Below, piece after piece: positions 6,064 to 49,080 of a stretch of 64,000 nt of DNA (the first letter of the stretch is position 1; each line of letters starts with the position of its first letter). Source of the DNA: Acutalibacteraceae bacterium (GTDB lineage Bacteria; Bacillota; Clostridia; Oscillospirales; Acutalibacteraceae). The notes below the pieces were generated by a model that saw nothing but the letters and a program-made list of their open reading frames with translations, was not told the origin of the DNA and made no database searches. The translations under genes and the position numbers were made by a program. The stretch lies in the NCBI GenBank assembly GCA_045640165.1, contig JAZUEK010000037.1, forward strand, positions 833 through 64,832. The letters are read 5' to 3'.

Positions 6064-6402
6064 CTCCCTCTGACGAGGGAGATGGCAAAACCGTAGGTTT
6101 TGACGGAGGGAGAGACAAATTTTGATAAAAAACCGTTCTCTCCCCCAGTCTCGCTATCGCTCGACAGCCCCCTCGTCAGAGGGGGCCAAGAGGAACACTC
6201 AAATTCTTTTGTAGGGACCGGCGTCCTCGACGGTCCATTGTGGAATTTTGTAGGGATTCGTGGCGCGTTTGTAGGGGGCATTCACGAATGGCCCCTCTTG
6301 GTCAGTAGGATAGATTCGGTGGGCGATTCGTGAATCGCCCCTACGAAATCGCCCAGAGTAACCTCAACTTTTCACCAAGGGACGTCGAAACACCGGCCCT
6401 AC
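6064..6402. repeat. Cluster of REP/BIME-like palindromic elements (GTAG + GC-rich hairpin units in both orientations)
   Basis: Units in one orientation: TGTAGGGACCGgcgtcctcgaCGGTCC at 6210-6236, and a TGTAGGGGGCATTCacGAATGGCCCC unit that starts with GTAG at 6271. An inverted unit GGGCGATTCgtGAATCGCCCCTAC lies at 6321-6344. The pair CTCCCTCtgacGAGGGAG at 6064-6081 and CCCCCTCgtcaGAGGGGG at 6168-6185 is related in inverted orientation. The same family recurs at 33319-33492. Confidence 0.65.
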
Positions 6403-9312: not shown

Positions 9313-10587
9313 ATGAAAAACACAGACAAGACAATGGACAAGTTGGTCGCCCTTTGCAAAGGCCGCGGATTTGTCTATGCAGGAAGCGAAATCTACGGCG
9401 GACTTGCCAACACCTGGGACTACGGTCCTCTCGGTGTGGAACTCAAAAACAACATCAAACAGGCGTGGTGGAAGAAATTCGTGAAAGAATCCCCCTACAA
9501 CGTCGGTCTTGATGCCGCCATCTTGATGAACCCCCAAACGTGGGTGGCTTCCGGTCACCTCGGCGGCTTCTCCGATCCGCTGATGGACTGCCGCGAATGC
9601 AAAGAGCGTTTCCGCGCGGATAAAATTATCGAAGACTATTGCGCCGAAAACGGTGTGGAACTGGAAAAGCCTATCGACGCGTTCTCGCAGGAAGAAATGA
9701 AAGCCTTCATCGAAGAGAAAAACATCCCCTGCCCGAGCTGCGGCAAACATAACTTCACCGATATCCGTCAGTTCAACCTGATGTTCAAAACGTTCCAAGG
9801 CGTGACCGAGGACGCGAAAAACACCGTGTATCTGCGTCCGGAAACCGCGCAGGGCATCTTTGTCAACTTCGCGAACGTCCAGAGAACGTCGCGCAAAAAA
9901 GTGCCGTTCGGCATCGGTCAAATCGGTAAATCGTTCCGCAACGAAATCACGCCGGGTAACTTTATTTTCCGCGTGCGCGAGTTCGAGCAGATGGAACTCG
10001 AATTTTTCTGCAAACCGGGCACCGACCTCGAATGGTTCAGCTACTGGCGCGGCTTCTGCCGTGATTGGCTGTTGTCGCTCGGCATCAAAGAAGAAAATCT
10101 CCGTCTGCGCGACCACGATCCGGAAGAACTCTGCTTCTACTCCAAAGCGACCACCGACTTCGAATTCTTGTTCCCGTTCGGTTGGGGCGAGCTGTGGGGC
10201 GTGGCCGACCGCACCGATTACGACTTGACCCAACACCAAAACACCTCCGGCAAAGACCTCACCTACTTCGACCAAGAAACGAACGAGCACTATATCCCCT
10301 ACGTCATCGAGCCGGCGCTCGGTGTGGAACGCTCGTTCTTAGCTTTCCTTTGTGATGCGTATGACGAAGAGGTCGTGGACGCCGAAAAGAACGACACCCG
10401 TGTGGTGCTTCGCCTGCATCCGGCGCTCGCGCCGTTCAAAGCCGCGGTGTTGCCGCTTTCGAAGAAACTGTCGGAAGAAGCGCGTAAAGTGTTCGACACT
10501 CTCGCGCCCGACTTTATGGTGGACTTCGACGATGCCGGCTCGATCGGCAAACGCTATCGCCGTCAGGACGAAATCGGCACGCCGTAA
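9313..10587 (+). CDS. glyQS: Glycine--tRNA ligase (alpha2-type GlyQS), reading frame closed by an in-frame TAA 43 codons before the family-typical end
   Basis: 424 aa. Class-II aaRS motifs and the GlyQS N-terminus are present ([28 protein letters not shown]). It ends ...[14 protein letters not shown], where homologues continue with an aromatic residue followed by C(V/I)T.DFD. Confidence 0.9.
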
Positions 10588-20949: not shown

Positions 20950-22100
20950 TTGACGTAGGTTTCGGCGCGTGGCGCGGTCTGTGGCGCAAACCGGCGCGCA
21001 CCGCGCTGACAATGTTTTCGCTCGCCGCCGGCGTGGCACTACTGACGTTGCTTTCGGCCATCTCCCGTGCCGGCACGGCGGCCGCCCAAGCGGAAATGCA
21101 GTGCATGGGGTTGGACGGTGTGTGGGTCACCGCGCAAGACGAGCCGCTCACCCACGACGTCGTCGAGAAACTCGCCACTTTGCCGGACGTAACGGTCGCC
21201 GCACCGATGACGCTGCTTTCCGCCAACGCCGCATTCGGCGAAACCTCCACTCCGGTACTTTTGTGCGGCATCGACGAACACGCCGCGCGCGCCGTCGCCG
21301 TAGACCTTTCGGCAGGACGGCTTCCCACCGCACAAGACGTCGCCGACACGGCGTTTTGCTGTACGATGGAAGACACCGCCGCCGAAGAAGCATTCGGCAA
21401 CGTCTCGCCGCTCGGCAGACAACTCGACGTGTATATCGGCACGCGTGAAGTGTCGTTTTCGGTCATCGGCAGTGCCAAAGCCAAAAGCAGTTTGCTCAAA
21501 AACCTGACAACCACCATTCCGCCGCTGATACTCGTTCCCCATTCCGCTTTGGCGGCGATATCCGGCGACGAATCGTTTTCGCGCGTCGCCGTGCGCTCCA
21601 CCCGTTCCACCGCGGTGCTGAAAGAGCAAATCGAACGGGCGCTCGCCGAAGACGGCAACTTTCAAATTGCCGATTTGGCGGCGCAGGGGGATCGCCTAAA
21701 CCGCCTTTTCGCGCTTCTCTCCGGCATTCTGACGCTCGCCGGCGGCGGCGCGGTCGTGGTGGCAGGATGCTGTGTGCTGTTGTCGCAGTTGTCCGCCGTC
21801 TCCGAACGCGTGGCGGAAATCGGGCTCAAAAAAGCACTTGGCGCCACCCGTTCCCGTATTTTGGCGGAATTTTTGCTGTCGGCGGCCATCGTCTCCTTTT
21901 GCGGAGCGGTCATCGGATCGCTTTGCGGCGGCGGCAGTGCCGTTTTGGGGTTGCATCTTGCCGGTGTCGCGTTCACACCGTCGCTGTCGCGCGGTGCGCT
22001 CCTCGTGGCGGCCGCTACCGCATTCGGTACGGCGTGCGGCGCGTATCCTGCCGCCAAAGCCGCGCGCCTTTCTCCGTTAGAGGCCTTTTGCCGCGTTTGA
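20946..22100 (+). CDS. ABC transporter permease, FtsX/MacB family
   Basis: 384 aa. Start MIDVGFGAWRGLWRKPARTALT overlaps the upstream stop (ATGA). It has a large extracytoplasmic loop and a C-terminal FtsX region (IGLKKALGATRSRILAEFLLSA ... YPAAKAARLSPLEA). Confidence 0.75.
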   Translation: MIDVGFGAWRGLWRKPARTALTMFSLAAGVALLTLLSAISRAGTAAAQAEMQCMGLDGVWVTAQDEPLTHDVVEKLATLPDVTVAAPMTLLSANAAFGETSTPVLLCGIDEHAARAVAVDLSAGRLPTAQDVADTAFCCTMEDTAAEEAFGNVSPLGRQLDVYIGTREVSFSVIGSAKAKSSLLKNLTTTIPPLILVPHSALAAISGDESFSRVAVRSTRSTAVLKEQIERALAEDGNFQIADLAAQGDRLNRLFALLSGILTLAGGGAVVVAGCCVLLSQLSAVSERVAEIGLKKALGATRSRILAEFLLSAAIVSFCGAVIGSLCGGGSAVLGLHLAGVAFTPSLSRGALLVAAATAFGTACGAYPAAKAARLSPLEAFCRV

Positions 22101-33268: not shown

Positions 33269-33318
33269 AAAACACATAAAAAAGAGTTGGTGGATTTCGC
33301 TTTTACTTCCGGCGGCGT

Positions 33319-33492
33319 TGTAGGGGTCATTCACGAATGACCCCCTCGCGGTCGGTGCGACATTTCAAAATGGGGCGATTCTTGAATCGCCCCTACAGAC
33401 ACAACTCAAATTCTCTTGTAGGGGCTGGCGTCCCCGACAGTCCATTGGTCGGTGCAAAATTCTAAAACGGCAGGAGCAAGCCCCTGCCCTAC
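33319..33492. repeat. Second cluster of REP/BIME-like GTAG-hairpin elements
   Basis: TGTAGGGGTCATTCacGAATGACCCC lies at 33319-33345. The inverted GGGGCGATTCttGAATCGCCCCTAC lies at 33372-33396. A ~45-nt segment at 33404-33448 closely resembles 6198-6240 by eye. GGCAGGagcaagcCCCTGCCCTAC ends at 33492. Confidence 0.65.
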
Positions 33493-39112: not shown

Positions 39113-39158
39113 ATAACAAAAAACAACCCCCTCTGTACAACGTACAGAGGGGGTTTTG
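39113..39158. terminator. Bidirectional terminator between gpsA and the pilus operon
   Basis: CCCCCTCTGTACaacGTACAGAGGGGG with T-runs on both strands. Confidence 0.7.
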
Positions 39159-39169
39159 TATAGGGTCAA

Positions 39170-39772
39170 TTAGTAGGTTTCTTCTTCCACTTTCGGGGTC
39201 TCTTCATACTCGAAGATAGCGATGTTGGTCGAAACCGAAGCGCTCTCTTGATTGTTTTCGCCTTGCGACACCGAGAACGTGATGTTATTAAGAAGACAAC
39301 CATGCTCCATCTCGTTAAACTGACGAAGAACATTGTAGGCATCCTCGCGCGAATTGGCTTTGAACGTCACGGCAATATCACGGCGCCAGCAGTTTTCACC
39401 GCGAGACGGCGTGGTAAAGTTCAGCGAGAACGTATCCGTCACACCGAGAATCTGGTTGACCTCATCGGTCAACTGCACCAAGTTGTTGTAATCGGCAATT
39501 TTCGTGAAGTCGGTGACCGTCTCGTCATCGTCATCCAACGAAAGACCGAGGTCTTCCATCCAACCTTTGAGCACGTTGATGTCTTCCACCACACCGGCGT
39601 TCTCATCAGTGGTCGCTTGAATTAAACCGCCGCCTTGACCTTCCGCGCCACGCAGTTCTTCAATGCGCGATTTGGTCGGCGTAAAGAAGAGCATATACCA
39701 CAAAGCGGCCACAACGACGAGCGCCAAAATGCCCATCATAATCTTATCACGACTACTCATCTTGTTCGTCAT
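39170..39772 (-). CDS. pilO: PilO-like type IV pilus assembly protein
   Basis: 200 aa. Architecture is an N-terminal TM helix, a short coiled coil and a C-terminal globular domain. It is the last gene after pilM-pilN. The call rests on architecture and synteny only. Confidence 0.55.
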   Translation of the reverse strand: MTNKMSSRDKIMMGILALVVVAALWYMLFFTPTKSRIEELRGAEGQGGGLIQATTDENAGVVEDINVLKGWMEDLGLSLDDDDETVTDFTKIADYNNLVQLTDEVNQILGVTDTFSLNFTTPSRGENCWRRDIAVTFKANSREDAYNVLRQFNEMEHGCLLNNITFSVSQGENNQESASVSTNIAIFEYEETPKVEEETY

Positions 39773-40518
39773 TGTGCGCTCACCTCCTCGCCGGAAACCT
39801 CATCCGCAGCCGGTTCTTCCTCTGGCGGAATTGCCACCTGCAGCGCAATATTCGCGGTCAACACTTTCTCCGTGCCGGCCAACAGGTTGCCCGCTTTATC
39901 TTTGTTGGTAACCGCCGTTTGCAGATCCACGTTAGTGACCAACTCGTTGTCACTCAAATCCTGGGCGAGCTGACCGACCTGTTCCAAAGTAACGTCATAG
40001 AAACTGATATTGATGGAGTTACCGTTGATACTAATGCTCTGCATCTCGGCCACGTTAAAGAGATGCTCATCCAACATATCAATCAGTTGAATACGGTCAA
40101 CAAGTTTAAGCTCTTCGTCCGACAAGAACGCTTTGAAATAGTGGCTGAACTTCTCGAACACCGCTTCATAACGAGCAAGCAACTGTTTGTTCTGCTCAAG
40201 TTCTTGTTGCGCCGCAACATACTCTTCCTCGGCGGCCTTTTTCTTGTTGTACTGGTCGAGAACACCGAACTTCGCAAACACCGCCAAAATAACCACCAAC
40301 AGCACAATCAGCACGATGTCGGTCGTTTTGGAATTTTCGCCTTTTTCCAAAATCACCAAGTTCATGGTTTTTTTGTTCGGGATTCCGGAACCGGTCTTCT
40401 TTTTGCCGAGGTCTTTCAGGAAGTCAAGACTGATATCCATGCTTAAACCTTTGCCACCGCCGCCTTCTACGGCTTCGGGGGCTTCTTTAACTTTCTTTTC
40501 TTTCTTCTCTTTAGCCAT
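39769..40518 (-). CDS. pilN: PilN-like type IV pilus assembly protein
   Basis: 249 aa. The cytoplasmic tail has an INLLP-like MNLVIL motif. It also has a TM helix and a coiled coil. It lies directly after pilM. Confidence 0.6.
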   Translation of the reverse strand: MAKEKKEKKVKEAPEAVEGGGGKGLSMDISLDFLKDLGKKKTGSGIPNKKTMNLVILEKGENSKTTDIVLIVLLVVILAVFAKFGVLDQYNKKKAAEEEYVAAQQELEQNKQLLARYEAVFEKFSHYFKAFLSDEELKLVDRIQLIDMLDEHLFNVAEMQSISINGNSINISFYDVTLEQVGQLAQDLSDNELVTNVDLQTAVTNKDKAGNLLAGTEKVLTANIALQVAIPPEEEPAADEVSGEEVSAQ

Positions 40519-40533
40519 CTGTGACTCCCCTCC

Positions 40534-41511
40534 TTACTGTAACGTAGCGCCGAGCGACAGCGCGCAGCGCGTCGCATACGGATTTTGGAACTTCTCGGGG
40601 AGCAGGTCGTTGACACTGCGCGCCGTAAGGCCCGTGGTTTCGGTAATCACGCGGAGAAGCGGCTGAATTTCAGAACCGCCGCCGGCATAGTAGATATGCT
40701 GCGCGTTTTCCGCGTTGCTCGTAAAGCCGTAGAAGTTAAGCGCTTTCATGATCTCAAACGCGATGTGGTTGTACACCTCTTCGCACTGCGGTTGATCGAG
40801 CGCAGAGTTGTGGTTCGTCTCTTTGTAGGCGCTCGCCACGTACACGTCCACGTCCATCGCTTCGGCGATCGCCATATCAATGGCGGTGCAACCCACGTCG
40901 ATGAGCTTAGTCGCCTCATGCTGGGTGCCTTTATAGAAATACGCGTGGGTGGACAAATGGCCGATATCCACAATGCAGTAGTCGTTTTTGCCCTCGGCAA
41001 TTTCCGGATTCTGCATCAGCAGGTTGCGATAGGCCATCTCCTGCGGAATCGCCGTAGTCAATTTCAGACCCGCGCTTTGCATCATCAGCGAGTTTTCCAC
41101 CACCGTGGTTTTAAGCACCGCCGCAGCGGTCGTCTCAATACCCATCGGGGCGCCCGACTCGTCTTTCGGCACGTCATCCACCAAATAATCGTAGAAATAA
41201 CGATCGCTCTCGCCGGACAGATAGTCACGCATCTCGTACGGCAAGTTGATGCGCAGACGTTCCTCTTCCATTACCGGAAAATGAATATGCCGGCAGAACA
41301 CCTGCGACGGCGGCAAAATCAGCGAGCAGTCGCCGCCCGGCAATTTGTATTTTTTGCGAATGTTTTTAATAAACTCCGCCATTGCATCCTGCAACTGCAC
41401 AACACCGTCTTTGACCAAGTTGGTCGGCAGTTTTTCACTCACCATACGAATGGTGTCACCTTTGCGGGCTGTGATCTTAATCTCGTTATTTCCGATGTCG
41501 ATCCCTAACAT
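40534..41511 (-). CDS. pilM: PilM, actin-like type IV pilus assembly ATPase-fold protein
   Basis: 325 aa. Shows LGIDIGNNEIKI, CIVDIGHLSTH and YAGGGSEI, consistent with an ASKHA fold. Confidence 0.8.
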   Translation of the reverse strand: MLGIDIGNNEIKITARKGDTIRMVSEKLPTNLVKDGVVQLQDAMAEFIKNIRKKYKLPGGDCSLILPPSQVFCRHIHFPVMEEERLRINLPYEMRDYLSGESDRYFYDYLVDDVPKDESGAPMGIETTAAAVLKTTVVENSLMMQSAGLKLTTAIPQEMAYRNLLMQNPEIAEGKNDYCIVDIGHLSTHAYFYKGTQHEATKLIDVGCTAIDMAIAEAMDVDVYVASAYKETNHNSALDQPQCEEVYNHIAFEIMKALNFYGFTSNAENAQHIYYAGGGSEIQPLLRVITETTGLTARSVNDLLPEKFQNPYATRCALSLGATLQ

Positions 41512-41584: not shown

Positions 41585-42502
41585 TTAAATCGAGAACAAA
41601 CTCTGATACCAGTCGGCGACAAAACTTCCGACGAACATCGCCACCCACGTTCCTGCCGCAATAGACGGACCGAACGGAATGAGTTTTTGTTCTTCTTTAG
41701 CTTCAATCGCCTCTAAAATTTCCTCCGTCGAGGCGGAGGCATCCGGAATTTCGATGGGCTCTGCGTCTTTTTGACGGGCGTTGTTGACGATACCGAAAAT
41801 CATGCCAAACACACACGCCACAATCATAATGAACAGACTGACTTGCCAACGGAAATACAATCCGATCATAAAGATCATCTTGATGTCGCCGCCGCCCATC
41901 GTTTCCTTGTCCATCACCTTATCGGCGATGATCACCAAAAGATACAGCGGAAGCGCCACAGCGAAGCCACCGATTACCGTGTTCAAAAGGTCTTTCCACA
42001 GTGTGCCCTCGTAGATGCCCGACGCAATGACGAACACCAAACGACCGGCAATACCGGCGATGATCAGACGATCCGGCACTAAGTAATCCTCCAAGTCGGC
42101 AAACGAGATGCACAAGAGGATCGCCGCCAAAAACGCCGCTTCCACCGCCCAGAGGGTAAAGCCAAAGCCGACGAGAATGGAAACAAACACCGCTGCGGAC
42201 AAAATTTCCGCCAGCAGATACCGAAACGCGATCTTCTGACCGCAATAGCGGCATTTGCCGCCAAGGAACAGATAACTAAACAGCGGAATCAAATCCCAAA
42301 AGCCGAGCGGATGATCGCATTTGGCGCAGTGGGAACGGCCGTGAAGCACCGACTCCTCGTGCACAATACGCCATGCCGCACAGTTGAGAAAACTGCCCAT
42401 ACAAAGGCCGAACAGCGCCACGATGCAAAGAATATAAATATACGTCCCCGTACTGTCTTTGAGATAGTTGAGATTTCCGAGGGTTTCAAAAACAGGAAGC
42501 AC
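41585..42502 (-). CDS. pilD: Prepilin peptidase / N-methyltransferase (A24 family)
   Basis: 305 aa with a GTG start. Shows Cys pairs CAKC...CRYC and the catalytic Asp regions ADLED and GGGDIKM. Confidence 0.9.
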   Translation of the reverse strand: MLPVFETLGNLNYLKDSTGTYIYILCIVALFGLCMGSFLNCAAWRIVHEESVLHGRSHCAKCDHPLGFWDLIPLFSYLFLGGKCRYCGQKIAFRYLLAEILSAAVFVSILVGFGFTLWAVEAAFLAAILLCISFADLEDYLVPDRLIIAGIAGRLVFVIASGIYEGTLWKDLLNTVIGGFAVALPLYLLVIIADKVMDKETMGGGDIKMIFMIGLYFRWQVSLFIMIVACVFGMIFGIVNNARQKDAEPIEIPDASASTEEILEAIEAKEEQKLIPFGPSIAAGTWVAMFVGSFVADWYQSLFSI

Positions 42503-42567: not shown

Positions 42568-42741
42568 TTACGCATCCACGCCGTCGTACATGGCGAACAT
42601 CGGCAGGTACACGGACAACAGAACGAAGCAGACGAACACGGCGAGGAACACGATCATAATCGGTTCGATAAGCGCGGTCGCTTTGGTGGTCGCGAGGTCC
42701 ACCTCGTTATCGTAATATTCAGCGGTAATGCCGAGGGTGGT
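42568..42741 (-). other. In-frame continuation of pilC after the internal TAA (last conserved segment and final TM helix)
   Basis: Own translation: TTLGITAEYYDNEVDLATTKATALIEPIMIVFLAVFVCFVLLSVYLPMFAMYDGVDA-TAA. This is the canonical GspF/PilC C-terminus. Confidence 0.8.
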
Positions 42742-43776
42742 TTACAGAGAACCGGTTTCCTCAGCGACGGCGGTCATTTCTTTAAGCAAATCGGGGAAAT
42801 ACTCGATATCGCGCATACAGTCACCGAGACGGCGACCGGCTTCGATACCGGCGTTCATCTCCAGTACCGCGCGGCTGACCACGTAGTTACCGATAACCTT
42901 ACCGGTAACGTTGATAGCCTCCACAACGGTCAGACCGGCAGAGAACATGTTAACGAAGGTATTCGCAAACTGGCTGGCGCAACTCATACTGTTCACCTTG
43001 CCGAGCACCGGCATATTCAGCATGAAGATGGCAATTTTCTCGCGTCCCACGTCGGTACGGGCAAAAATACGGTAAATCAAAATGATTGCCGCAATAATAC
43101 CGGCCAACAGTATAAAGTGTTTGGTCATAAACTCAGACATCGCGATAAGGAGTTTCGTCGGAAGCGGCAACTCACCGCCCTGGCTTTCGAACGTTTCCTT
43201 AAACATAGGAACCGCGACCACCATGATGATGACGATAACGACGACGGAAACCACGCCGACGAATGCCGGGTAGGTCAAAGCGGATTTGACCTTACCTTTA
43301 GTCTTGGCGGATTTGTCGTAGAAGACTTCCATACGCTTAAAGGACTGCTCCAAGTTACCGGATTTTTCACCGGCGCGCACCGTTTCAATAAAGGTAACGG
43401 GGAGCGTCGCGCCGCGGTCTTGGAAACTGTCGGACAACGAGTGACCGGCGGCCACGTCGTGGGCAACCTCGGTCAACAAGAGTTTCAAGTCTTTGTTCTC
43501 GGTTTGGTTGGCAACCAGTTCCACGGTACGCACCAGCGGCAAACCGGAAGACAAGATGATACCGAACTGGCTGCACACAAGGGACAGCTCTTTTTCGGAG
43601 ATTTTTTTCGGGCCAAGGAACGAACCACCCGTTTTTTTCTTAGCCTCGGAAATTTTGGTGACAACGCCACCCTGTTCACGAATTTTGGCGATTGCGTCCA
43701 AGCGATCGTACGCTTCGATAACGCCGGTCATTTTACCGCCGCTGGACGACTGGGCCTCATACTTGAATGTTGTCAA
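42742..43776 (-). CDS. pilC: Type IV pilus platform protein PilC (GspF family), closed by an in-frame TAA 57 codons before the family-typical end
   Basis: 344 aa. GspF repeats are present and the protein ends ...LKEMTAVAEETGSL-TAA. Together with 42568-42741 the frame is 403 codons, counting the internal and terminal stops, which is the usual PilC size. Confidence 0.85.
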   Translation of the reverse strand: MTTFKYEAQSSSGGKMTGVIEAYDRLDAIAKIREQGGVVTKISEAKKKTGGSFLGPKKISEKELSLVCSQFGIILSSGLPLVRTVELVANQTENKDLKLLLTEVAHDVAAGHSLSDSFQDRGATLPVTFIETVRAGEKSGNLEQSFKRMEVFYDKSAKTKGKVKSALTYPAFVGVVSVVVIVIIMVVAVPMFKETFESQGGELPLPTKLLIAMSEFMTKHFILLAGIIAAIILIYRIFARTDVGREKIAIFMLNMPVLGKVNSMSCASQFANTFVNMFSAGLTVVEAINVTGKVIGNYVVSRAVLEMNAGIEAGRRLGDCMRDIEYFPDLLKEMTAVAEETGSL

Positions 43777-44866: not shown

Positions 44867-46564
44867 TTATCCGACGGTGTTGACCGTACGAATCAATTCT
44901 GACAAAGTGGACGTTCCTTCATACACCACGCGCAAGCAGTCGTCGCGCAGGGTGCGGAAACCGTCCGCCTCCAAAGCGGCGTCCAAATCGGCACGGCTAC
45001 CGCTTTCAGCGATCACGCGCTGGACTCTCTGAGAGAACATCATGATCTCGAACACGGCAATACGTCCGCGATAGCCGCTCTCGTGGCAATCCGGGCAACC
45101 TTTGCCGCGGTAGAACACGTGCTGATTGGCTTCTTCACGGGTCAAACCGGACTTACGCAACTCTTCGTCGTCCGGAATATATTCTTCTTTGCAGCGCGGG
45201 CAGATACGACGCACCAGACGCTGAGAGATAACACCGCGCATGGCGCTGTGAATCAGGAAGCGCGGCGTACCCATATCGAGCAAACGGTCGACCGTGGACG
45301 GCGCATCGTTGGTATGGAGGGTCGAGATAACCAAGTGACCGGTAATAGCGGAACGCATGGCGATCTCGGAGGTCTCGCCGTCACGAATTTCACCGACGGA
45401 GATGATATCCGGGTCCTGACGCAAGATAGAACGAAGACCGTTGGCAAAGGTCATACCGGTTTTCTCGTTAATCTGCACCTGGTTGACGCCGTCGATATTG
45501 TACTCAACCGGGTCCTCCAAGGTGACCAAGTTGACGTCTTCTTGGTTCAAGCGAGTCATAATGGCGGTCATCGTGGACGATTTACCGGAACCGGTCGGGC
45601 CCACGATCAAAATAACACCGTTGCTGTTGGAAATCAAATTGACAACCTTATCTTGGTTGTCGCCGGTCAGTCCAACGCCTTCAAAGTTGAGCATTTCGGT
45701 GCTCTTACGCAACAAACGAATAACGATTTTCTCACCGTAAATGGTCGGCAGAGAAGAAATACGAAGGTCAATGTCCTGACCGCGAGCACGGACGTTCGCA
45801 CGACCGTCCTGCGGAATACGACGCTCGGCGATGTCCATCGAGCCGATAATCTTAATACGCGAAATAACCGCCGATTGCGATTTTTTCGGCACCGATAAGA
45901 TTTGACGAAGCACACCGTCGGTACGCAGACGAACGGTCAGCTCGGTCTCACGCGGCTCGATGTGAATATCACTGGCGTTTTCGTTAACGGCACGCTCAAT
46001 GATAGAGTTCACAAGACGGATAATCGGGGCGGCCTCTTCGTCGTCGCTATCGATTTGGTGGCTCTGCACGCCGCCCTCAGCGGCACGGCTGTCGCCCTCC
46101 TCCATCTGCAGTTCTTCGAGCGCCTGGTTGGCGTTGTCCGCACCATAGAGGTTAATCAGCATCCGCTCGGTCGCGCTACTGGTCGCAATGAGCGGAACAA
46201 TGTTCATCTGGGTGGCGGCTTTGGCTTCATCGAGCGCCACGAAGTCGAGCGGGTCGACCATGGCGAGGTACAGGGTGTTGTCCACCGCACGCACCGGCAC
46301 GACGAAGTGTTCACGCGCCAATTTCTTAGGAACCAAGTCGGCAAGCGCCGGGTTGGGCATCTCAGACGAGAGGTCCACGAAATCCACATGCAACTGCACG
46401 CGCAGCGCGTCAATCAAATCCTCCTCGGTGATAATTCCTGCTTTCACAAGCACCATACCAAGACGCTGACCGGTTTCTTTCTGGAATTCCAGCGCCTGAC
46501 GGAGCTGTTCTTCGTTGATTTTGTTCGCCTCAAGCAGCATATCGCCGAGTCGTTTGTAAGCCAT
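44867..46564 (-). CDS. pilB: Type IV pilus assembly ATPase PilB (GspE family)
   Basis: 565 aa. It has an N-terminal GSPII-type domain, the Walker A motif GPTGSGKSST, and a tetracysteine motif CPRC...CPDC. Confidence 0.92.
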   Translation of the reverse strand: MAYKRLGDMLLEANKINEEQLRQALEFQKETGQRLGMVLVKAGIITEEDLIDALRVQLHVDFVDLSSEMPNPALADLVPKKLAREHFVVPVRAVDNTLYLAMVDPLDFVALDEAKAATQMNIVPLIATSSATERMLINLYGADNANQALEELQMEEGDSRAAEGGVQSHQIDSDDEEAAPIIRLVNSIIERAVNENASDIHIEPRETELTVRLRTDGVLRQILSVPKKSQSAVISRIKIIGSMDIAERRIPQDGRANVRARGQDIDLRISSLPTIYGEKIVIRLLRKSTEMLNFEGVGLTGDNQDKVVNLISNSNGVILIVGPTGSGKSSTMTAIMTRLNQEDVNLVTLEDPVEYNIDGVNQVQINEKTGMTFANGLRSILRQDPDIISVGEIRDGETSEIAMRSAITGHLVISTLHTNDAPSTVDRLLDMGTPRFLIHSAMRGVISQRLVRRICPRCKEEYIPDDEELRKSGLTREEANQHVFYRGKGCPDCHESGYRGRIAVFEIMMFSQRVQRVIAESGSRADLDAALEADGFRTLRDDCLRVVYEGTSTLSELIRTVNTVG

Positions 46565-46628: not shown

Positions 46629-47354
46629 TCAGGGAGTCGACGTCTCCGGAACAGACACGGTCGATGTCGTTGCTTCAGCATTTGCCGGGCGGAAACTAAC
46701 TTCCACATCTTTTGTCATCGGTTTGGTGCCCGACGGCTCTGAAATCGTATAGGTAAGAGTAAACACACCGTCATCAAAAGCAACGTCAAAATCCTTTATA
46801 ATCAGCGTCGTATACACACCGTGACTAACAAGGAAGTGCGGCTTCAAGTTGTCATACTCAACCAACTTGCGCGTGTCGCCCTCTTTGGTGTATTCCTGGA
46901 ACTTCATCGCCAAACGATCTACGTATTTCGGTTCCGCCGTTGTGCCGACATTATACGGCTCCATCAGCAAAACGCCGCTTACAATACCATAATCATTGTT
47001 GGTAATAAAGCACGTGCCGCCATCCATCGTCAATTCGTTCTGGGTAACAAGCGCATTCTCCAACGTGGCAATTTGCTTCGGCAATCCTTCTTCCAAAGCA
47101 GTAACGTCTTTCTCCGTATACGGTTCAATCTCCGCATAGCGAAGCACGTCTTGCACCGCCGTATTGATGGTAGAAGCCAAAATATCACTTTCAGCAACAA
47201 ACGTGGCCTCACGCTGTACGCGCGCACCTACCGAAGCGCCCACCGACATCATCAAAGACATCATAACCACAACAAGGAGAGCTGCGAGCATTTCGACAAG
47301 CGTAAAACCTTTATTGGAATGTAATTTTTTGCGTAACTTCTTCAAAATACGCAT
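46629..47354 (-). CDS. Pilin-like protein with canonical prepilin N-terminus (minor pilin candidate)
   Basis: 241 aa from MRILKKLRKKLHSNKG|FTLVEMLAALLVVVMM. G is at -1, F at +1 and E at +5. A GGGGAGG RBS lies 8 nt upstream. Confidence 0.8.
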   Translation of the reverse strand: MRILKKLRKKLHSNKGFTLVEMLAALLVVVMMSLMMSVGASVGARVQREATFVAESDILASTINTAVQDVLRYAEIEPYTEKDVTALEEGLPKQIATLENALVTQNELTMDGGTCFITNNDYGIVSGVLLMEPYNVGTTAEPKYVDRLAMKFQEYTKEGDTRKLVEYDNLKPHFLVSHGVYTTLIIKDFDVAFDDGVFTLTYTISEPSGTKPMTKDVEVSFRPANAEATTSTVSVPETSTP

Positions 47355-47371
47355 ACCGCATACCTCCCCTT

Positions 47372-47776
47372 TTAGGATTCCGGACAAAGAATATAGGTGC
47401 TGTAATCACCGTATTGTATCTCCGTCTCTTCATCGCTGATATTGCAATCCGTATAAGAAACGGCTATTTCTTTGGTATCTTTGACCGTTTTCTCATCCTC
47501 CGGCGTTTCCGGTTGATTGAAAAGAATCACCTTCACTTTGCCGTCGGACGCATCGCCGGCCGTTCCCGATAAAATGCTCATGCATTTTTGGTTGCGTGTA
47601 TCACGCTCGCGCGCTTGGCGGTTCAACTCCATTGCCGTTGTCGTTGCACCGGCAAGCAAAATGCTGGCAAACGTGGCAATCAAAATAGCAAACAAAGTTT
47701 CCACAAGCGTCTCGCCTGCGCGGCTTTTTAATTTCTTCAGCATTACTTTTTTCATACTCTCTCGCCGCCCTCTCAT
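47372..47776 (-). CDS. Small pilin-like protein with atypical processing site
   Basis: 134 aa: ...KKLKSRAG|ETLVETLFAILIATFASILLAG. G-1 and E+5 are present but +1 is Glu. Its start overlaps the upstream stop (ATGA). Confidence 0.6.
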   Translation of the reverse strand: MRGRRESMKKVMLKKLKSRAGETLVETLFAILIATFASILLAGATTTAMELNRQARERDTRNQKCMSILSGTAGDASDGKVKVILFNQPETPEDEKTVKDTKEIAVSYTDCNISDEETEIQYGDYSTYILCPES

Positions 47777-48855
47777 GAACCGCTTACATCACTGGCCACC
47801 GTCGAAGACTCCTCATCGGATTGTATCGGTTTCAATCCTTTCGAAATCTCAATATCATCGGTGTACCATGTCAAATACGTATCTACCACCGTGGTGCGCT
47901 TAATATGCTGAGCACCATCCCCACCAATAGGACAAGTTTCTTCAATCGGTTCGGACGAATAACCGGCAGGTGTCAACGATTCAAAGGAAGAGTGCGCCGT
48001 CAACGTCGCCGAGTACGTCGAAGAAAACCGAGAATCCACCGACATTCTGAAGGTAAGATTGGCCTTTTCATCCGTCGTCATCGTAACGTGAACCGTAGGA
48101 AGATTTTTAAGATGCAACGCATCATCATCGTCCGGCACAATGTCAAAAGAATACTCTAAATCATTAAATTTAAACGGAACAGCCCCATCGGTTACTTTCG
48201 CAAAAGCATCAATAAATGCTTTCAACGAATCCGTTGCCGTCATCACGCCGTTACGCGGATCAAATTTGCGAATACCCTCATCGCTCAACCGCTTGCTCAT
48301 GGCATACATAGCCACTTCTTCCAACGGTGCTTTCAAAAACACCGTATCATTATCCCCCACGCAGTTGAGGCCAAACGAAGCAAACGAACCCGTAGCCGGA
48401 GTAAAGTTGATAACGCCAGTCGTGCCGTTCACCACCACAGCCGGGCTATCGCTAACCAAACCGCCGGCATCGGTCCACAAACCGAAATAGTTGTGAGCCG
48501 ATGGGCAATCGCACAGCGAATACGAAATTTTCTCATCGCGCAAATGGAAGCCACCGATAGCACGCGCTGTCACACCGTCTACGTTTGTAATCTCTTTACG
48601 GTTATCCACGCGGTTCGCTCCGTTGATTTGGCCGAACATATCTTTAATGAGGTTTTGCGCCGATTGAATGGCGAAAAACGAGCGTTGCTCCTCTTTTTGC
48701 GCCAACGCACGCGAGGCGTTAACCGAAGCGGATGCCATCACGACGGATGCCACAAAAAAGCACATCAGAAAGAACGCCAGCGCCAACAAAATGGATGCAC
48801 CGGTGTTGCTCTTTAATTTTTTCGTGAATCTTTTCGTGAACGAGTTTGTTTTCAC
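47773..48855 (-). CDS. Large pilin-like protein lacking Glu+5 (GspK/PilX-like minor pilin candidate)
   Basis: 360 aa from the GTG at 48855 (AAAGGAGG RBS 7 nt upstream): VKTNSFTKRFTKKLKSNTG|ASILLALAFFLMCFFVASVVMA. The track's TTG start at 48972 has no RBS. Confidence 0.5.
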   Translation of the reverse strand: MKTNSFTKRFTKKLKSNTGASILLALAFFLMCFFVASVVMASASVNASRALAQKEEQRSFFAIQSAQNLIKDMFGQINGANRVDNRKEITNVDGVTARAIGGFHLRDEKISYSLCDCPSAHNYFGLWTDAGGLVSDSPAVVVNGTTGVINFTPATGSFASFGLNCVGDNDTVFLKAPLEEVAMYAMSKRLSDEGIRKFDPRNGVMTATDSLKAFIDAFAKVTDGAVPFKFNDLEYSFDIVPDDDDALHLKNLPTVHVTMTTDEKANLTFRMSVDSRFSSTYSATLTAHSSFESLTPAGYSSEPIEETCPIGGDGAQHIKRTTVVDTYLTWYTDDIEISKGLKPIQSDEESSTVASDVSGS

Positions 48856-48996
48856 AAAAAAGCCTCCTTTTCGCCGAAAGCGGCGGAGTTTTTCAAAAAA
48901 GTATCGTGTTTTTTCCAAAACAGATTGTCTTTTCAGGGATCTTGCCGAAACAGTTTCAGTAAAATCCGTCAAAAGACACGTCTGACACAGCGTTTT

Positions 48997-49052
48997 CGTT
49001 AAAACGCAAAAGGGAACTCTCTCCCCGCCCGCCCAAGCGGGCGGGGAGAGAG
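48997..49052 (-). terminator. Very strong hairpin plus T-tract immediately after the giant pilin gene
   Basis: Minus strand reads CTCTCTCCCCGCCCGCttggGCGGGCGGGGAGAGAG, a 16-bp perfect stem, followed by TTCCCTTTTGCGTTTT. Confidence 0.65.
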
Positions 49053-49080
49053 TATTTGCTATGGGGTTAGTTCGCGGGGG

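Follow-up and report, generated by a model that had tools for sequence, protein, structure and literature searches.

In the tip complexes formed by GspHIJK and by PilABC of Streptococcus sanguinis, a subunit that lacks the glutamate at position 5 of the mature protein (Glu5) forms the cap, and modular pilins are located at the tip (PMC9934059). This Glu5-less subunit enters first, and the adhesive parts are borne by the tip complex (PMC9934059, PMC13533445). Genes for pilins are not necessarily located with the biosynthetic genes (PMC3244431), and PilA has been reported to be without homologues outside S. sanguinis (PMC6497953, PMC9934059). Here we consider a stretch of 64,000 nucleotides from an Acutalibacteraceae bacterium (GenBank assembly GCA_045640165.1, contig JAZUEK010000037.1, positions 833 to 64,832; hereafter the window), the minus strand of which carries one type IV pilus operon with all prepilin and machinery genes co-oriented (Table 1). 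Three consecutive genes, called the trio below, encode pilin-like proteins and follow the gene of a giant pilin. The trio likely provides the minor pilins, and not the fiber, of a retractile type IVa pilus in this gut bacterium, with the major pilins encoded elsewhere in the genome.

The trio genes are tightly packed with a Shine-Dalgarno sequence before each of them, and the longer version of the small gene starts in overlap with the stop of the 360-residue gene. Each has 17–32 homologous clusters at 42–69% identity with an invariant or near-invariant leader and α1 helix, and the synteny is kept in related metagenome-assembled genomes, which argues that the genes are real. These relatives are Acutalibacteraceae (Clostridia) as well, one of them from horse feces. 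All three proteins have a class III signal, that is a short basic leader ending in Gly−1, which is invariant across the alignments of all three families, followed by about 20 hydrophobic residues. The cognate prepilin peptidase, PilD, is encoded within the same operon, together with the PilB/PilC machinery. Two regular-expression scans for class III signals on the window's contig gave only four prepilins, the giant open reading frame and the trio; therefore no short major pilin is present between 39.1 and 63.2 kb or elsewhere in the window. An earlier reading made from the sequence only had reported the lack of a short pilin gene in that interval, and the scans agree; its coordinates, sizes and cleavage motifs for the trio (G↓ASILL without Glu5, G↓ETLVE and G↓FTLVEM, the arrow marking the cleavage site) are all correct.

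A search of the whole assembly (1.52 Mb, 84 contigs, 86% complete), as that reading had proposed, returned four conventional pilin paralogs on three unlinked loci, all off the window's contig, so that eight prepilins are found in all. An apparent fifth paralog, a terminal fragment of contig C80, was rejected as the same copy as C9a, based on a 141-bp contig overlap. The paralogs start with MK(K)MNKKG↓FTLMEMLIVIAIIAILIAIAIPTFT(A/S)ALEKS and have identical N-termini (MKKMNKKG↓FTLMEML type); their C-terminal halves diverge, and overall identity is 64–79%. They have what is expected of major pilins: a length of about 130–150 residues, a canonical G↓F-T-L-x-E signal, and best NCBIfam and PDB matches to major pilins (ComGC, PpdD, PilA, GspG, PAK pilin, S. 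sanguinis PilE1 and Geobacter PilA-N), with 35.7 bits against TIGR02532 (cut-off 16.3). Their ribosome-binding sites are strong (AAAGGAG), and at the three loci a near-consensus sigma-70 promoter, TTGACA-17-TACAAT or TACACT, is located 111–164 nt upstream. The assembly was also searched for another pilus or Com machinery to which these pilins might belong, and none was found. PilB, PilT, PilC, PilD, PilM, PilN and PilO occur as a single set, with pilB in single copy; the distal pilins therefore have no other machine.

The surroundings of the distal pilin genes have further features. Small XRE-type helix-turn-helix genes are present beside the C80/C9 and C58 loci (C80:262-561, C9:1210-1542, C58:20425-20718 and 21496-21717), and locus-specific inverted repeats, such as TGTAACA-N5-TGTTACA and GAAAATGACATTCAGTGAATGTCATTTTC, overlap or follow the pilin promoters at all three loci. 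The paralogs may each be individually controlled, as in variant switching. A dispersed repeat of 80–170 bp (75–97% identity), often in tandem, flanks the C9/C80 and C26 loci and is also found in the window (around 6268-6344 and 33318-33402) and on more than 20 other contigs. An IS200/RAYT-like transposase gene (C58:21948-22469) adjoins the C58 locus, which suggests repetitive extragenic palindromic (REP)-like elements.

The distribution of short pilins in relatives connects them to the operon. Of 12 species of the genus, seven possess the operon (PilB, PilC); a short pilin was found in six of these and in none of the five species without the operon (one-sided Fisher p = 0.0076, uncorrected for phylogeny). 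G157 and G158 carry their short pilins on contigs distinct from that of the operon, some of them as tandem doublets or triplets, and in G160 a single short-pilin gene lies at the beginning of a different contig. Sister species G076 encodes an orthologous pilin (60% identity) directly downstream of pilO (L022, G076:C21, 2893-3342). In the window this position is occupied by an 80-bp spacer followed by the convergent gpsA gene, so that within the genus the operon has either lost this pilin gene or had it moved elsewhere. In G080, which belongs to another genus, a tandem pair of major pilins immediately precedes the first trio gene. The suggestion of the sequence-only reading that the major pilin is encoded elsewhere is thus borne out by four conventional paralogs on other contigs and by their tracking of the operon in the genus. 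What it had named as speaking against an operon without a conventional major pilin, a classical pilin encoded elsewhere that co-varies with the operon, was found both in location and in co-variation.

The first trio protein, here called K-like, starts at a GTG codon 7 nt after AAGGAGG and has 341 residues in its mature form. Its leader is MKTNSFTKRFTKKLKSNTG↓ASILLALAFF, with a leucine in place of Glu5, and the cleavage region reads ...KKLKSNTG↓ASILLALAFFLMCFFVAS. The leader is invariant in 17 close clusters. By profile search the wider family extends to 2,939 clusters at 50% identity, 1,810 of these at E ≤ 1e-10, with proteins of 210–340 residues, a KLxSxxG↓ASLxxALLLFLVC... start, an invariant cysteine at +13 and a conserved C-terminal tryptophan. 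Glu5 is missing in 40/40 aligned members. The absence of Glu5 is typical of cap subunits, and like the caps GspK, PilX and PilK the K-like protein combines it with being the bulkiest of the ordinary minor pilins. The AlphaFold2 model (predicted local distance difference test score, pLDDT, of 73) consists of a long α1 (H17-77) followed by β-sheets and a helical insertion. Homology searches gave no assignment for the family in Pfam, NCBIfam or PDB. The protein matched neither T2SSK, PilX_N nor NCBIfam NF037980 even at E ≤ 10, nor N_methyl (PF07963) or TIGR02532; just two of the 40 family members matched NF037980 (E = 0.002), and a genome-wide search with this GspK model found nothing. A Foldseek comparison of the moderate-confidence model with the PDB gave unrelated proteins (best E 0.04) and no GspK or PilX fold match.

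The second protein has the leader MKKVMLKKLKSRAG↓ETLVETLF and carries glutamates at both +1 and +5 (G↓ETLVETLFAIL). Gly−1, Glu+1 and Glu5 are invariant in 23/23 aligned homologues and also occur in four more distant cassettes; in a fifth, L026, the sequence ends after G↓ESIA and shows only Glu+1. The N_methyl score of 13 bits is under the cut-off of 21.2. Below threshold, and in the N-terminal helix only, the homologues match ComGE (22 of 23, best E 2e-6), ComGF (20), PilV (3) and XpsI (2). A role of Glu+1 as a second buried acidic group beside the Glu5-less cap is plausible. The third protein (241 residues, 17 homologues) possesses a canonical class III signal with Glu5, MRILKKLRKKLHSNKG↓FTLVEML, and exceeds the cut-offs of both N_methyl (PF07963; 23.2 bits, cut-off 21.2) and TIGR02532 (22.1 bits, cut-off 16.3). 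The gspJ model is matched by seven of the 17 family members, sub-threshold and N-terminally only, and the protein does not reach the cut-off of the GspJ or PilW family models. Its AlphaFold2 model (pLDDT 72) has α1 (H19-72) and β-sheets and gave no Foldseek match, including none to the GspJ/PilW fold. Both modeled trio proteins show the lollipop layout of pilins, a long N-terminal α-helix on a β-sheet.

The giant pilin starts with the leader MKNTNYANSRPRSVKPKRRTG↓FTMMEMM (MKNTNY...RRTG↓FTMMEMM) and contains N_methyl, eight Flg_new_2 and one Flg_new domains; its orthologues in relatives have 4423–4621 residues. It is the operon's fourth prepilin and is presumed to partner the trio as an adhesin. 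An association of this kind is also seen in relatives, where a cassette of K-like, Glu+1 small and mid-size pilin genes is adjoined by a large pilin gene; the full order was read in the window, L001, L002, G076, G080, L024 and L025, while the L026 and L027 contigs end at the small pilin. In every neighborhood read the gene after the K-like one encodes a small pilin of the type G↓E(T/S)(L/I)x E, and wherever the contig continues the third gene encodes a 183–246-residue G↓(F/V)TLxE pilin. The large pilin precedes the trio in the window's genus and follows it elsewhere. The N-terminus of these large pilins, …YA(K/R)(E/D)(I/V)(F/Y)(I/L)(A/T)AQ… (IAKQ in L025), resembles that of the giant pilin; the genus of the window differs in that its large pilin has moved ahead of the trio and grown to 4,400–4,600 residues. 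In L026 (3-227) the K-like pilin gene is preceded by one that ends with …GTYLVEETKAPDGYT…, a sequence more like a SpaA/Cna-B-type domain than a pilin.

Several results weigh against the assignment of the trio as a minor-pilin set served by distal major pilins. No GspI/J/K, PilV/W/X or ComG model reaches its cut-off for any trio member, and beyond the N-terminal methylation motif the trio reaches no Pfam or NCBIfam cut-off at all. Profile searches of PDB sequences with the trio families match the pilin α1 helix only, and Foldseek gave no match at E ≤ 0.001 for the two modeled proteins (pLDDT 72–73), the best hits being unrelated proteins at E 0.04 and 0.1. The operon-bearing species G156 shows no short pilin, and the assembly discussed here is incomplete. 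A strong hairpin follows the giant gene and no promoter is recognizable before the trio. Lastly, an in-frame TAA stops PilC after residue 344 of 402.

The support for a priming set comes from the presence of one Glu5-less member, from the cassette being kept by a large pilin, and from the sub-threshold matches to minor-pilin models; in these matches the trio tends to minor-pilin families, whereas the distal paralogs tend to major-pilin families. The sequence-only reading had likened the trio to a GspI/J/K priming set, which agrees with the anatomy and finds no backing in any homology test, neither by a family cut-off nor by a fold match. By analogy, the trio probably acts in the manner of a tip or priming complex of minor pilins; membership of the GspIJK family is not claimed.

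The pilus of S. sanguinis, with PilA-PilB-PilC and PilE1/PilE2 (PMC6497953, PMC9934059), is similar in being a type IVa pilus of a monoderm that employs PilB, T, C, D, M, N and O. Its minor pilins are clustered, and one of them is Glu5-less, with a degenerate signal that standard tools overlook. It also has at least one oversized modular pilin with adhesive modules, and its major pilin is present as multiple paralogs whose N-termini are identical. Differences are that three non-modular minor pilins and a single modular one of 4513 residues are present here, against modular pilins of about 50 kDa in S. sanguinis, that the Glu5-less member is large instead of small, that the small pilin carries Glu+1, and that the genes of the major pilins lie apart from the operon. 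Similarity in sequence to the window pilins was not found.

The GspH-I-J-K and FimU-PilV-W-X sets (PilH-I-J-K; Korotkov & Hol 2008 via PMC9934059; PMC13533445), the core minor-pilin initiation complexes of type II secretion systems and type IVa pili, likewise group four prepilins, with small and mid-size members and a bulkiest ordinary member that lacks Glu5, and go together with a tip adhesin of very large size. In diderms this adhesin is the non-pilin PilY1/PilC, whereas here it is itself a pilin, and the gene order there is H-I-J-K instead of K, small, mid, large. The GspI/J/K and PilV/W/X models remain below cut-off in the trio, and the K-like and mid-size models have no Foldseek similarity to these proteins.

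With respect to the ComGD, ComGE, ComGF and ComGG pilins of Firmicutes, the small and mid-size proteins find their best sub-threshold hidden Markov model matches in ComGE, ComGF and ComGD. ComGG also lacks a canonical Glu5. However, the matches cover the N-terminal helix only, with 15–28 bits against cut-offs of 49–80, and the operon includes PilT and PilMNO, does not show a ComGA/GB-type arrangement, and possesses a giant adhesin pilin.

Some features of the operon concern its expression and machinery. The hairpin between the giant gene and the trio is a candidate terminator or attenuator, and positions 48856-49015 upstream of the trio contain no recognizable sigma-70-like promoter. Candidate routes for transcription of the trio and the machinery genes are read-through and an unrecognized promoter. 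The match of the pilO-like gene is weak (T2SSM 22.9 bits, under the cut-off of 27.8), and the assignment of the pilN-like gene is based solely on its position and on synteny.

Table 1. Coordinates of the pilus operon features in the window and of the pilin paralogs on other contigs (C9, C26, C58) of the assembly.
Feature	Size	Position	Strand	Remarks
Giant prepilin gene	4513 residues	62622..49081	minus	Starts at ATG 62622; transcribed first
GC-rich hairpin with T-rich tail	17 bp	49053..49016	minus	Between giant pilin gene and trio
K-like pilin gene	360 residues	48855..47773	minus	Open reading frame, ribosome-binding site, homologues
Small Glu+1 pilin gene	127 (ATG 47755) or 134 (ATG 47776) residues	47755 or 47776..47372	minus	Open reading frame, homologues
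Third (mid-size) pilin gene	241 residues	47354..46629	minus	Open reading frame, N_methyl, homologues
pilB, extension ATPase		44867..46564	minus	T2SSE 2e-130 and MshEN
pilT, retraction ATPase	358 residues	43773..44849	minus	T2SSE 1.2e-51
pilC, platform protein		42568..43776	minus	In-frame TAA at 42742-42744
pilD, prepilin peptidase (A24)		41585..42502	minus	A24_N_bact 3e-30, Peptidase_A24 5e-14
pilM, pilN-like and pilO-like genes		39170..41511	minus	PilM_2 1e-16; weak T2SSM
Terminator hairpin		39125-39155	minus	Closes the operon after the pilO-like gene
Pilin paralog C9a	140 residues	C9:38-460		
Pilin paralog	141 residues	C9:565-990		In tandem with C9a
Pilin paralog	138 residues	C26:12123-12539		
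Pilin paralog	152 residues	C58:20890-21348		

The stop in pilC raises the question whether the system functions. The frame runs on to 42568, and the TAA removes the last approximately 57 residues including a transmembrane helix. Uninterrupted pilC genes of 402–403 codons are present in five other species of the genus, and in G160 the gene is complete but split over two contigs, so that the stop is private to this genome among the seven operon-bearing species. It would be a G-to-T change (GAA to TAA) if the codon was GAA, as the glutamate in sister species G076 suggests. An in-frame TAA is also found in the essential glyQS gene (10585-10587, plus strand; …DEIGTP-stop-CVAFD…), which would be a C-to-A change if the original codon was TAC, a codon that is itself supposed. 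Recoding of TAA was considered as a cause of the pilC stop and rejected, as no TAA-suppressor tRNA was present among the 45 tRNAs found. The two stops suggest sequencing or consensus error or mutational bias, and because an essential gene has a similar TAA and no suppressor tRNA was found, consensus error is as likely as decay for pilC. The pilus machine may be inactive in this strain. That the system is decaying or inactive, and the gene set therefore not a working machine, agrees with the private pilC stop and the lack of a suppressor tRNA. We nevertheless regard it as unlikely, in view of the intactness of all other operon genes, including the 13.5-kb open reading frame, and of the glyQS stop, which suggests error or tolerated read-through and not decay.

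A rather improbable option, also raised in the sequence-only reading, is a short pseudopilus in the manner of type II secretion or Com systems, which would push the giant pilin through the wall; trio and giant pilin would form the filament and the distal pilins would be accessory or have another function. Its attraction is that the giant gene is promoter-proximal, comes first and is followed by a hairpin, which is the usual place of a major pilin. Moreover, ComGC is the best NCBIfam match of the distal pilins, albeit sub-threshold, and the L028 cassette begins without an upstream pilin gene. However, such a device does not account for PilT, nor for four strongly promoted pilin genes that have no other machinery, and the pilin adjoins the operon in G076 as well as in G080 and shows co-variation with it across the genus. 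The third suggestion of that reading, that the 127/134-residue Glu+1 protein is an unusual major subunit, is highly improbable, since although it is the sole short pilin in the operon and its α1 is highly conserved, its gene is mid-cassette, translationally packed and without a promoter of its own, the G076 and G080 cassettes are adjoined by separate canonical major pilins, its model affinities are to ComGE, ComGF, PilV and GspI and not to major pilins, and conventional paralogs are encoded in the same genome.

If the trio is a minor-pilin set of a retractile pilus, the analogy with GspHIJK and S. sanguinis PilABC allows a possible assembly sequence. The Glu5-less K-like pilin would enter first and cap the tip, and the small Glu+1/Glu5 pilin and the 241-residue pilin would dock under this cap. 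Together with the 4513-residue modular pilin they could form a tip complex that primes polymerization of major pilins. This complex would present the giant adhesin while the four major paralogs polymerize beneath it, after which PilT would retract the fiber. A bolder proposal, which we put forward as doubtful, is that the cassette represents a distinct Clostridia tip-complex lineage of about 2,900 cap clusters, with globular domains unrelated to those of HIJK and with Glu+1 as a second buried charge. For the first subunits, the Glu+1 residue would alter the usual rule that each N-terminus has one Glu5, and it might permit loading of a half-megadalton pilin at the tip.

On a whole-genome reading, a pilus operon without a fiber subunit is ordinary, and unlinked major pilins are well known. 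The remaining novelty is an undescribed and widespread minor-pilin cassette of gut Clostridia that has Glu+1 as its hallmark and is tied to giant modular pilins. If this cassette forms a tip complex, it would improve annotation, since the trio proteins are now without family assignment, and it would offer simple genetic access to the way in which giant adhesins are mounted on the retractile pili of monoderm bacteria.

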